7,549 bases of DNA from a virus (taxonomy: Monodnaviria; Loebvirae; Hofneiviricota; Faserviricetes; Tubulavirales; Inoviridae), in the IMG/VR virus record IMGVR_UViG_2579778797_000001, positions 1-7,549 of that record; one strand, given 5' to 3'. The position numbers and the translations under genes are program-made. Numbering within the stretch: the stretch's first letter is position 1; every line of letters begins with the position of its first letter. Shown here piece by piece: positions 4,036 to 7,549 of the stretch. The notes beneath the pieces were generated by a model that saw only the letters and a list, made by a program, of their open reading frames with translations, did not search any database and was not told where the DNA came from.

Positions 4036-6277
<2,242 letters not shown>

Positions 6278-6410
6278 GACCTCATGTCCTCATGATGACA
6301 AACAAAAAAGAACATACTCAAAAAACATCATGAACACAAGATGTATTAACAACATTTGCTCAAGTGCTCTAGAGTACATGATGGCTAAATACAAAAAAGG
6401 GGGCTAAATA
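6278..6410. promoter_or_regulatory. Divergent intergenic control region between the Rep operon and the RHH gene, with short repeats (candidate operators and/or origin)
   Basis: AT-rich 133 bp. CATGATG at 6291-6297 and 6377-6383 and inverted (CATCATG) at 6326-6332. Tandem CCTCATG at 6280-6286 and 6288-6294. Palindrome CTCTAGAG at about 6367-6374. No convincing sigma70 hexamers could be assigned by eye. Confidence 0.4.
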
Positions 6411-6611
6411 ATGGCTGAAAAAAGAAAGAGTTATAACGTGCCAAACGAGAAGTATCTAAAGCTAGAAAGATTAGCTATTGATGCAAGTCAAAAGATAGGA
6501 AGGAGCATAAAATGGACCGAAGTACTGTCTTACATGATAGATCACTACGCAAAAGACGCAGCAATAGATATGGTAAGTCAGGAAGAACTTAAGAAAAAAA
6601 AGGCAATGTGA
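6411..6611 (+). CDS. Small ribbon-helix-helix (CopG/Arc-like) putative transcriptional regulator (66 aa), divergent from the Rep operon
   Basis: ATG at 6411 preceded by AAGGGGG. N-terminal basic beta-strand-like segment (KRKSYNVP) followed by two predicted helices (EKYLKLERLAI; KWTEVLSYMIDHYAK), typical of RHH repressors. Position is analogous to rstR in CTXphi. Confidence 0.6.
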   Translation: MAEKRKSYNVPNEKYLKLERLAIDASQKIGRSIKWTEVLSYMIDHYAKDAAIDMVSQEELKKKKAM

Positions 6612-6674
6612 TCCCTTTCCCAACGTCAAACAAACAGGCCAGGAAAGATCAAAGGAAAAGTTAAACAAGGAAAT

Positions 6675-6830
6675 ATGCAGATAACCAGTGACTTAATCCT
6701 TGACCTGCTGATAAAGCATTTCGTTGTTGGCAGCATCACAGGCATGACAATATTCAGCCTGATAACGCTTGTCCCACCGTTGGTGATGACCATACACAAA
6801 AAACTAAGTAAGGACACTGAAATCCTTTAA
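6675..6830 (+). CDS. Small membrane peptide (51 aa), not in the ORF track; co-oriented with and downstream of the RHH gene
   Basis: ATG at 6675 with AAGGA just upstream. Translation MQITSDLILDLLIKHFVVGSITGMTIFSLITLVPPLVMTIHKKLSKDTEIL has one TM helix followed by a basic tail. Stop at 6828-6830 is 30 nt before the terminator at 6860-6899. Confidence 0.35.
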   Translation: MQITSDLILDLLIKHFVVGSITGMTIFSLITLVPPLVMTIHKKLSKDTEIL

Positions 6831-6859
6831 GGTTCAGTGCGCACAATGACGTTATGTAT

Positions 6860-6899
6860 AAAAAGGCCGCTGCGGTGGAGAGTATCGCAGCGGCCTTTT
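6860..6899. terminator. Bidirectional rho-independent terminator at the prophage edge
   Basis: Perfect 10-bp stem GGCCGCTGCG / CGCAGCGGCC (6865-6874 and 6886-6895) with an 11-nt loop, flanked by AAAAA (6860-6864) and TTTT (6896-6899), giving a U-run on both strands. Confidence 0.75.
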
Positions 6900-6929
6900 C
6901 AACATAACGCGTGTCACATTATGCGCACC
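6897..6929. other. dif-like XerC/XerD recombination site; prophage-host junction
   Basis: Minus strand reads GGTGCGCATAA TGT GACACGCG TTATGTTGAAA. The first 14 nt equal E. coli dif (GGTGCGCATAATGTATATTATGTTAAAT, from memory), then the sequence diverges. A XerD-arm-like TTATGTTGAAA (9/11) lies 11 bp from the XerC arm instead of 6 bp. Confidence 0.7.
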
Positions 6930-7005
6930 AATATAAACCAAGGAAGAATCCAGTCGTTGGCGGTCATGATTGTCATGCTCATTAACAATGACCAAACCCC
7001 ATATC

Positions 7006-7209
7006 TCACTTACTACCGTATTCTCGGCTTAACCGTCCATGCAACCTCAACACATTGCTTTCAACTGCCGTCACCACGTTCTCCGGAAAATCTGTCGGTA
7101 ATGAAGTCTTCACGTTATCCAGTGCTGCTGGAATCATTCTGGCAAAGTCACTCAGGATTTCATGCATCTGCACTTCCGGGAATCTCAGCACCTTTGCTGT
7201 CGCCAAAAA
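7006..7209 (-). pseudogene. hipA: 3' fragment of hipA (HipA toxin kinase C-terminal ~67 codons); gene truncated at its 5' side
   Basis: Translation FLATAKVLRFPEVQMHEILSDFARMIPAALDNVKTSLPTDFPENVVTAVESNVLRLHGRLSREYGSK matches my memory of the E. coli HipA C-terminus. The frame is closed by a TGA immediately upstream (7210-7212), so no full-length hipA is possible. HipB operators lie 25 bp away. Confidence 0.6.
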
Positions 7210-7234
7210 TCATGTCATACGTCCACAGCAAGTT

Positions 7235-7435: not shown

Positions 7436-7549
7436 TTACCAGCTATATTTCACTCCCAGCATGCCCTGAGTATCGCTATAGCCTTTATCACCTAGTTGCA
7501 CACCGACATTCCCCCACAGGCTAAGGTTGTTAGTGACATTTCCCGACAT
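7436..7549 (-). CDS. 3' end (last 37 codons) of an outer-membrane autotransporter-like gene continuing beyond the window (yneO/ydeU-like position upstream of hipB)
   Basis: Minus-strand frame open to the window edge; translation ...GNVGVQLGDKGYSDTQGMLGVKYSW then TAA at 7436-7438. Alternating hydrophobic residues and a terminal aromatic (YSW) are typical of the last beta-strand of autotransporter barrels. In E. coli K-12 an autotransporter pseudogene lies directly upstream of hipB (memory). Confidence 0.5.
   Translation of the reverse strand: MSGNVTNNLSLWGNVGVQLGDKGYSDTQGMLGVKYSW

Follow-up and report, generated by a model that had tools for sequence, protein, structure and literature searches.

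A putative RstR-like repressor, an orphan membrane-peptide gene and a predicted attachment hairpin at the regulatory end of an Escherichia coli filamentous prophage

For the filamentous phage YpfPhi, an inverted XerC/XerD pair and a CTXphi-like integration model were proposed on the same sequence grounds that are used below, and the endogenous phage gives partial protection against superinfection (PMC4266046). In the dif-integrating E. coli inoviruses of the UPphi901 type, three open reading frames (ORFs) of unknown function, h3-h5, lie in reverse orientation by the dif-like site and are variable between relatives (Shapiro and Putonti 2020, PMC7307601). Two small membrane peptides are known from Pseudomonas phage Pf4: PfsE, a very small inner-membrane peptide that confers superinfection exclusion via the host membrane protein PilC (PMC8764522), and PftP4, a membrane peptide of 33 amino acids (aa) that shares a transcript with zot in the structural operon and whose overexpression is toxic (PMC11769263). 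Here we describe a related locus in a stretch of 7,549 nucleotides (nt), hereafter the window, taken from the IMG/VR inovirus record IMGVR_UViG_2579778797_000001. A first-pass annotation of positions 6411-6899 had proposed a two-gene module, in which a ribbon-helix-helix (RHH) regulator is paired with a 51-aa membrane peptide and a terminator closes the unit.

The window is E. coli chromosome with a filamentous inovirus prophage at dif, beside a truncated hipA. The closest complete genome, TD225-C4, has the same phage as a tandem pair next to hipA. Our analysis makes it fairly probable that the segment under study is that end of a CTXphi-style, XerCD-dependent filamentous prophage which serves regulation and attachment, and that it consists of three independent parts: an RHH repressor, a membrane peptide and an attP. 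Both genes are present exactly as the first-pass annotation had drawn them (6411-6611, + strand, 66 aa; 6675-6830, + strand, 51 aa). The pairing of the two into a dedicated module did not survive comparison with related loci.

6411..6611, + strand: gene for the 66-aa RHH protein, a putative RstR-like immunity-repressor allele, identical to WP_001409658.1
6278..6410, no strand assigned: divergent regulatory region, 133 bp, which moves with the RHH gene as one cassette

The 66-aa gene is divergent from the Rep operon, which runs in the opposite direction beyond the 133-bp region; the gene thus stands where rstR stands in CTXphi, as the first-pass annotation had noticed. An AlphaFold2 (AF2) model built with ten homologues (pLDDT 84) has an extended N-terminus, a helix at residues 12-29, a turn at G30-R-S32 and a second helix at residues 35-65, which is the beta-alpha-alpha topology (N-terminal strand, two helices) of the RHH class. 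The G-x-(S/T/N) turn that caps helix 2 is present as G30-R31-S32, and G30 is invariant across the 10 homologues. The nearest structural neighbours of the model are the RHH antitoxins MazE7, ParD, MazE6 and TacA. A profile search against PDB sequences gave a single match, ParG, over helix 2 only (E 0.032). Among curated RHH families there was no significant match: Pfam, which the first-pass annotation had named as a check on both proteins, gave nothing at threshold for either (for the 66-aa protein only DUF7753, E 0.038), NCBIfam and PADLOC gave no match to the 66-aa protein, and the PHROG database gave only the unnamed phrog_2503 (E 7e-27). The protein is predicted to adopt an RHH fold, with scores that are modest, as is usual for a domain of 50 residues.

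The family to which the protein belongs can be followed through its alleles. The 66-aa protein is 45% identical to a 70-aa E. coli allele (E 9e-16), which in turn is 68% identical to the CTXphi protein annotated as ‘environmental RstR; transcriptional repressor’ (ACV95583.1; E 1e-26). Homologues lie divergent from Rep in other E. coli prophages and, as read on the locus, in Dulem virus 52 from lemur saliva; in Vibrio inoviruses the matches are tblastn hits only, without a reading of gene order. The 66-aa gene is no chance ORF: all 22 of the nucleotide differences between the window and the E. coli locus AST217 (L004) are synonymous (22/22), leaving an identical protein. We consider it well supported at the sequence level that the 66-aa protein is an allele of a multi-allelic, RstR-like family of immunity repressors, since each allele is paired with a repeated motif of its own in the divergent promoter region.

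Two further observations concern this family. The 66- and 70-aa alleles both end in ...EELKKKKAM and are followed by similar DNA (TGATCCCTTTCCC; window 6590-6625), which looks like a recombination boundary of the immunity cassette placed inside the 3′ end of the gene. The ‘major intergenic region’ of If1 (NC_001954.1, L009:1477-1680), a phage that does not integrate, contains an unannotated 67-aa ORF, which shares 50% identity with the window RHH protein, is nearly identical to homologues in Dickeya and Yersinia and adjoins fragments of IS200/IS605 TnpA-like ORFs.

The candidate operators were found as repeats in the divergent region:

6291..6297, + strand: CATGATG repeat, copy 1, candidate operator half-site (repeat search)
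6326..6332, − strand: CATGATG repeat, copy 2, reading CATCATG on the + strand (repeat search)
6377..6383, + strand: CATGATG repeat, copy 3, overlapping the −10-like hexamer of the rightward promoter-like site
6346..6375, + strand: sigma-70 promoter-like site TTAACA-18-TAGAGT upstream of the RHH gene (consensus match only)

In the whole 7.5-kb window, CATGATG or its complement occurs three times, each time within 6291-6383, and the tetramer CATG is enriched about 7-fold within 6278-6410. A leftward promoter, TTGTGT-17-TATGTT, can be read by eye, and one CATGATG copy sits there. The window and AST217 are about 86% identical from about 6246, just inside the 82-aa ORF that leads the Rep operon, to about 6620; the two share the divergent region and the RHH gene, yet the Rep of AST217 belongs to a different family. 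Each of seven RHH alleles has in its divergent region its own 6-8-mer in 3-7 copies. The close relatives among them, the 70-aa E. coli allele and the CTXphi environmental RstR, share CGCATGC/ATGCGCGC repeats; the repeats of other alleles are TGAACTCA, GTTAACA, TGCACAA and GCTCACA. A sequence-specific repressor is supported by these comparisons, because the protein is identical in AST217 and the region travels with it, and because every allele has a private repeat. The arrangement is what heteroimmune repressor alleles with private operators look like, and we infer that the RHH protein binds these repeats.

The second part of the locus is the membrane peptide:

6675..6830, + strand: gene for a 51-aa single-helix inner-membrane peptide, predicted N-out / C-in (from ORF, alignment, AF2 and hydropathy)
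6667..6671, + strand: AAGGA Shine-Dalgarno sequence of the peptide gene, at a rather short distance (3 nt) from the ATG

Word-indexed and exhaustive profile searches brought together a family of four subfamilies with lengths of 51, 51, 46 and 57 aa. The relatives fall into few clusters, all from Escherichia or Enterobacteriaceae, and all are named ‘hypothetical’ except for a 43-aa ‘putative membrane protein’. Residues M1, I8, L9, D10, K14, G23 and P35 are conserved across the four subfamilies, while L12 is conserved in the first seven-sequence alignment only. The common layout is an acidic N-terminus with ILDLLxK, a transmembrane (TM) helix with G19xxxG23 and P35, and a basic C-terminal tail. 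The AF2 model is one continuous helix (pLDDT 85), and the best 19-residue stretch has a mean Kyte-Doolittle hydropathy of 1.85-2.6 across the subfamilies. The N-terminal flank is net negative and the C-terminal flank has a net charge of +1 to +9, so that by the positive-inside rule the peptide is predicted to be N-out / C-in. A single TM helix and a Shine-Dalgarno sequence of its own had been attributed to this ORF by the first-pass annotation, and both hold, with the close spacing noted above; the ORF is also conserved in related prophages. No Pfam, PHROG, NCBIfam or PADLOC family matches the peptide, a tblastn search against phages gave no match, and a peptide-pattern scan of genome contigs gave no confirmed relative.

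Comparison between subfamilies argues for translation of the ORF. The proportion of synonymous differences (pS) is 0.62-0.91, with synonymous sites saturated, versus 0.28-0.50 for nonsynonymous differences (pN); start, stop, length class, ILDLLxK, GxxxG, Pro35 and basic tail persist between subfamilies. The differences are concentrated at third codon positions, an excess that, to the detriment of this argument, cannot tell the + frame from a mostly open antisense frame that shares its wobble positions. In each of the five diverged pairs compared, the BLOSUM62 score of the + frame is the higher (111 versus 80, 65 versus 43, 118 versus 70, 58 versus 40 and 60 versus 22). The + frame is favoured because of these scores, the conserved ATG and stop, and the architecture of a membrane peptide. 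The antisense ORF itself (6817..6626) was considered as a real gene and rejected: its BLOSUM scores are lower, it has no conserved start and its end lies in non-homologous DNA. The structure of single-stranded DNA (ssDNA) under the peptide ORF is ordinary (z = −0.9), and as its fold is no better than that of shuffles, the block was also rejected as a structured packaging signal or minus-strand origin. From its sequence the 51-aa ORF is a genuine conserved gene of an orphan family, and its product is a predicted one.

The annotation record of the family is mixed. RefSeq (PGAP) leaves the 51-aa and 46-aa forms unannotated, as the first-pass annotation had expected; the 57-aa form, which E24377A carries, is in RefSeq as WP_001409659.1, and the identical 51-aa protein has been deposited in GenBank as a hypothetical protein, EZJ41161.1, so that the expectation was too broad. 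Literature searches by accession found no paper, and one on RstR and the RHH fold brought nothing of use.

The third part begins shortly after the stop codon of the peptide gene:

6836..6862, + strand: dif-like site A, AGTGCGCACAA / TGACG / TTATGTATAAA (XerC-like arm, short central region, XerD-like arm)
6897..6929, − strand: dif-like site B, GGTGCGCATAA / TGTGACACGCG / TTATGTTGAAA
6861..6899, no strand assigned: G+C-rich perfect stem-loop, apex of the att hairpin and possible bidirectional terminator
6836..6929, − strand: whole attP-derived forked hairpin, 94 nt, with two inverted dif-like sites and an ssDNA fold
6929, no strand assigned: position from which the phage-phage and phage-chromosome junctions diverge, located at the outer end of the XerC arm; the junctions are identical through 6928

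The element described in the first-pass annotation as a perfect terminator is a perfect 14-bp inverted repeat (6861-6874 / 6886-6899; AAAAGGCCGCTGCG ... CGCAGCGGCCTTTT) that starts 31 nt after the peptide stop. The perfection of the repeat is confirmed and termination is possible, but the stem-loop appears to be something else in the first place, namely the tip of a forked attP hairpin of the CTXphi type, which is built from two inverted dif-like sites. As a terminator it has four Us on the + strand and, better, five plus two on the − strand, and a consensus terminator scan of the window did not flag it; the att stem may also terminate convergent transcription. Site A hardly varies across all the related loci. 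Site B has the same XerC arm as E. coli dif, which reads GGTGCGCATAA TGTATA TTATGTTAAAT. We presume that the phage packages the minus strand of the window as its (+) ssDNA, and in this strand the 94-nt segment has a predicted fold of −37.7 kcal/mol (z = −9.3), with none of 200 shuffles as stable; in the predicted hairpin the arms are paired and a 6-nt bulge lies in the central region.

The tandem pair in TD225-C4 gives the two kinds of junction that can be compared. At the phage-phage junction ...CATTATGCGCAC is followed by TGACGTTG, and at the phage-chromosome junction ...CATTATGCGCAC is followed by CAATATAAACC. The comparison of these junctions assigns both dif-like sites to the phage and puts the crossover in the XerC arm of site B, within about 6917-6928. 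A scan of genome contigs with the hairpin pattern (TTATGT...ACATAA...CATTATGCGCAC) returned mostly ordinary chromosomal dif sites with a chance TTATGT upstream; the only real related hairpin was that of Enterobacter adelaidei (L028). In a search of 6100-7100 against Rfam no family reached its gathering score, and only sub-threshold chance matches fell on the hairpin.

The three parts are not equally bound to one another. The peptide gene was found behind at least six different genes, with spacers of 38-430 nt; four of these genes are RHH alleles, one encodes an unrelated 62-aa protein and one a helix-turn-helix (HTH) protein:

Window and TD225-C4: 66-aa RHH protein
L013 and L014: 70-aa RHH allele
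L015: 62-aa RHH allele
L005 and L016: 60-aa RHH allele (RHH60b)
L002 and L003: unrelated 62-aa protein
L008 and L023: 162-aa HTH protein, upstream of the 57-aa form of the peptide

The identical 66-aa RHH protein has the 51-aa form 63 nt downstream in the window and the 46-aa form 430 nt downstream in AST217. RHH alleles without the peptide are found in L039, L038, Dulem virus 52 and If1. The first of these, a dif-integrated IKe-like inovirus of E. coli, has an RHH allele, a 140-aa multi-TM protein, an STM4504-family protein and then the att hairpin, and Dulem virus 52 has its RHH allele without such cargo. The link that does hold is with the attachment end: at every peptide locus the stop codon is 5-10 nt before the same att hairpin (site A), and among complete E. 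coli genomes about 56 records have a high-identity hairpin, versus 12 + 22 + 25 genomes with the peptide gene. The RHH protein and the peptide are not a dedicated two-gene module.

Several observations were made on L038 and on relatives of the att end. The record L038 (E. coli A37 ‘plasmid unnamed4’, NZ_CP195780.1) is a 7439-bp circle with both att sites intact, evidently the replicative form of a related inovirus; its repressor side has a truncated RHH allele, a 168-aa ORF and a 68-aa membrane ORF. The Enterobacter adelaidei hairpin (L028:3296-3373) is preceded by a 110-aa multi-TM protein ending in ...HRCNSYYW. The 140-aa protein in the repressor-side operon of the L039 phage (L039:3559-3981) is a relative of it and ends in ...HRRNSYYW; the two make a second family of att-side membrane cargo. 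The L039 phage may be of the UPphi901 type. An unannotated half-hairpin relative of about 70 nt (82-86% identity), GGTTCGCATAATGACGTTATGC...GGCCGCTGCG...CGCAGCGGCCTTTT, is present in pJIE186-2 (NC_020271.1, L036:2500-2570) and on about 470 other plasmids, mostly conjugative IncF. On the plasmids it comes directly after an STM4504/CBY_0614-family gene, and because the same gene-hairpin pair makes the att end of L039, the plasmids appear to hold a fragment of an L039-type phage, or the reverse.

From these data the following mechanism can be proposed. In the 133-bp region a dimer of the RHH protein would bind the three CATGATG repeats; it would thereby silence the Rep/structural operon and regulate its own gene. 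The peptide gene occupies the att-adjacent cargo slot of the repressor-side transcription unit, so that the peptide should be made in the lysogen. It would insert N-out / C-in, and its conserved N-terminus and GxxxG surface would act on a membrane partner of the host or the phage. In the phage ssDNA the two inverted dif-like sites would fold into a substrate for XerCD, XerC would exchange one strand with dif to give the prophage junction observed at about 6918-6929, and the att stem would probably also stop convergent transcription.

Some of our observations weigh against this proposal. The operators that it needs are seen as repeats only, the count of promoter-like sites in the divergent region is not above shuffle expectation, and the consensus promoter scan called no leftward promoter there; for the window, L004 and L008 alike, little could be learned from the promoter and terminator scans. 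In AST217 the RHH gene is followed by a possible terminator, seen by eye and not flagged by the terminator scan, because of which the peptide gene may need a promoter of its own, and none was detected. The Shine-Dalgarno sequence is weak or absent in two of the peptide subfamilies (absent in the 46-aa form, strong in the 57-aa form). A profile search of 1.84 billion representative proteins with the peptide gave no homologue beyond its own three 50%-identity clusters. DNA binding and repression by the RHH protein are predictions, as are translation and phenotype of the peptide, and superinfection exclusion is suggested by analogy.

What the peptide does is the part on which the readings differ most. 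That it is an accessory or superinfection-exclusion factor acting on an envelope partner is a tentative proposal, to which we give somewhat less than an even chance; it is favoured by the orientation of the gene, the precedent of PfsE and the partial protection seen in YpfPhi lysogens. The first-pass annotation had named the same pair, repressor and exclusion factor, beside antitoxin and toxin, and it is the former that fits best, by analogy; the latter lacks a fixed linkage. In an addiction module, the peptide would be a membrane-damaging toxin and the RHH protein its antitoxin or dedicated repressor, stabilising the episome or prophage. Such a module would agree with the structural neighbours of the RHH model, the closest of which are RHH antitoxins, with a small hydrophobic peptide 63 nt downstream in the same orientation, and with the fact that inoviruses do encode toxic membrane peptides such as PftP4 (PMC11769263). 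Cognate co-inheritance fails, though, with at least six upstream partners for the peptide and one RHH66 carrying two peptide subfamilies, and the peptide exchanges its upstream genes while RHH alleles carry other cargo or none (L039, L038, Dulem virus 52 and If1 are without the peptide), which disfavours a toxin-antitoxin pair; furthermore, RHH is a generic DNA-binding fold, and PADLOC, Pfam, NCBIfam and PHROG place the peptide in no known toxin family. Of the traits of type I toxins (Hok/Ldr/TisB-like) a hydrophobic peptide is present, and no antisense-RNA family of Rfam, which covers known families only, reached its gathering score in 6100-7100. We regard an addiction module as improbable.

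The strict adjacency of peptide gene and hairpin admits a different role, that of a phage life-cycle factor tied to the hairpin, either a pVII/pIX-like membrane anchor for the attP/packaging hairpin or a helper of XerCD. The 5-10 nt distance is kept on three or more unrelated phage backbones and in four diverged subfamilies, the count of high-identity hairpins is near that of peptide genes, and the architecture resembles that of a coat protein without signal peptide (acidic outside, GxxxG TM helix, basic tail inside). The gene, however, runs in the direction of the repressor gene and against that of the structural genes, and the interval between the ssDNA-binding and coat genes already has candidates for pVII/pIX; three of the four subfamilies, moreover, have a short basic tail (net +1 to +3). 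The hairpin does not need the peptide, because related hairpins are preceded by entirely different genes (STM4504-family, 110/140-aa multi-TM and 68-aa). This role is unlikely, if a shade less so than the addiction module. Its narrower form seems to us as improbable as that module. In this form the peptide would be dedicated to the attP hairpin, with its basic cytoplasmic tail working on XerCD or on the ssDNA once folded, which would explain why the stop codon is always 5-10 nt from site A across unrelated backbones; if true, the peptide might hold ssDNA at the inner membrane on its way in or out, or tip the balance between integration and assembly. Finally, the ORF might be untranslated and the block 6672-6835 conserved as DNA or RNA, be it as an att, ori or packaging region or for the antisense frame. 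The lack of a RefSeq call for the 51- and 46-aa forms, the largely open wobble-sharing antisense frame, the weak Shine-Dalgarno sequence in two subfamilies and the 98% identity in several genomes right to the ATG are in line with this. Against it, ATG, stop, length class, motifs and basic tail persist although synonymous sites are saturated, the + frame scores well above the antisense frame, whose ORF has no conserved start and an end in non-homologous DNA, and the ssDNA structure is not unusual (z = −0.9), so we think this the least probable of the alternatives. The preferred reading remains a repressor-side accessory peptide, with repressor, peptide and attP as independent parts.

The rest of the window is made of the phage genes and the chromosomal flank:

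6029..6277, − strand: 82-aa ORF, gene 1 of the Rep operon, overlapping the start of Rep (ORF list)
6036..4036, − strand: Rep (PGAP annotation in the closest genome)

On the minus strand the order is the 82-aa ORF, a GPA-type Rep of 666 aa, a G5P-like ORF, two tiny ORFs, a major-coat-like ORF, a glycine-rich pIII, pVI and Zot/pI. The 82-aa ORF has a weak match to phrog_3104. Its N-terminus, VYYDYxPxxG, and some of its C-terminal region are common to 63/65-aa leftward leading ORFs of phages with unrelated Reps, because of which it may be part of the regulatory cassette that is exchanged between phages, and not of the replication module. The pIII-like gene has a long glycine/serine-rich tandem repeat at 2044-2447 (GGSSGSGGSGSGS...), because of which other frames and the opposite strand also contain long ORFs that are spurious. 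The chromosomal flank (dif/hipA neighbourhood, 3′ end of hipA) runs from about 6916 on and is present in nearly all E. coli genomes. At 7209-7210 there is a 1.38-kb deletion relative to three other E. coli genomes, which has removed hipB and all of hipA except its last ~204 nt; the hipA remnant abuts the region upstream of an ECSE_1600-family autotransporter, whose C-terminal end is the ORF 7436-7549 (− strand).

Many E. coli genomes have the same prophage type at dif next to hipA, and tandem copies are frequent; in TD225-C4 the internal copy has a pIV secretin gene after the att region. A megablast search of the whole window against the phage collection found no deposited phage genome matching at the DNA level. 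A tandem phage of the same type, with a peptide-plus-att block 98% identical, is present on a Citrobacter youngae plasmid (OV141394.1 80972-95215, L037), a 363-kb IncFIB/IncHI1B conjugative plasmid; given these tandem copies, the phage type can also reside on plasmids and travel with them.

What our analysis adds is, in the first place, a position for a group of inovirus ‘hypothetical proteins’ (phrog_2503 and relatives from E. coli, Dickeya, Yersinia, Xenorhabdus and Vibrio), which are placed as putative RHH-type, RstR-like repressors. With a readable candidate operator for each allele, heteroimmunity among the dif-integrating filamentous phages of E. coli becomes testable. In addition, an orphan membrane-peptide family is defined that is tightly linked to one att type, is mostly unannotated in RefSeq and serves as a marker of the att end in about 1% of complete E. 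coli genomes. Where fitness and virulence effects have been reported for YpfPhi, CUS-1 and UPphi, suspicion falls first on the accessory genes in this position, which makes the peptide a cheap and well-defined candidate for superinfection or host-envelope phenotypes.

A close parallel in layout is the RS2 region of CTXphi (rstR, ig-2 operators, attP). In both, a small repressor gene is divergent from the replication gene, the repressor alleles are highly diverged and each has its own repeats in the divergent region; in both, two inverted dif-like sites would form a hairpin with a bulged centre, the junction has a chromosomal XerC arm and prophages occur in tandem. The ‘environmental RstR’ of CTXphi is a true homologue of the window RHH family, whereas the canonical El Tor and classical RstR are HTH proteins and not RHH proteins. 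The loop between the att sites is about 35 nt in the window, and in CTXphi it is roughly 90 nt. In CTXphi there is no gene between rstR and attP, while in the window the membrane-peptide gene is located there. The likeness of the peptide to PfsE, as a very small inovirus inner-membrane peptide conserved within a phage lineage, is one of kind only: PfsE is encoded in the Pf core region and has a cytoplasmic N-terminus, the window peptide is att-adjacent, on the repressor side and predicted N-out, and the profile search, which found nothing outside the peptide family, gave no sequence similarity between them. PftP4 is likewise a small inovirus membrane peptide missed by annotation (PMC11769263), with no homology to the window peptide. 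In UPphi901 the cargo genes differ, and the 46-57-aa peptide family is absent from the description in that paper (PMC7307601). YpfPhi of Yersinia pestis and CUS-1 of E. coli K1, which we liken to the window by layout, share with it a regulator divergent from Rep (YPO2273, an RstR homologue), one or two unknown ORFs (YPO2271/2272; orf1/orf1a), an att end at dif and tandem copies (PMC4266046). The architecture of a regulator, unknown ORFs and an inverted-site att end at dif is already known from YpfPhi/CUS-1 and UPphi901 and parallels rstR/attP of CTXphi; our findings overturn none of it, and they add the window to this group.

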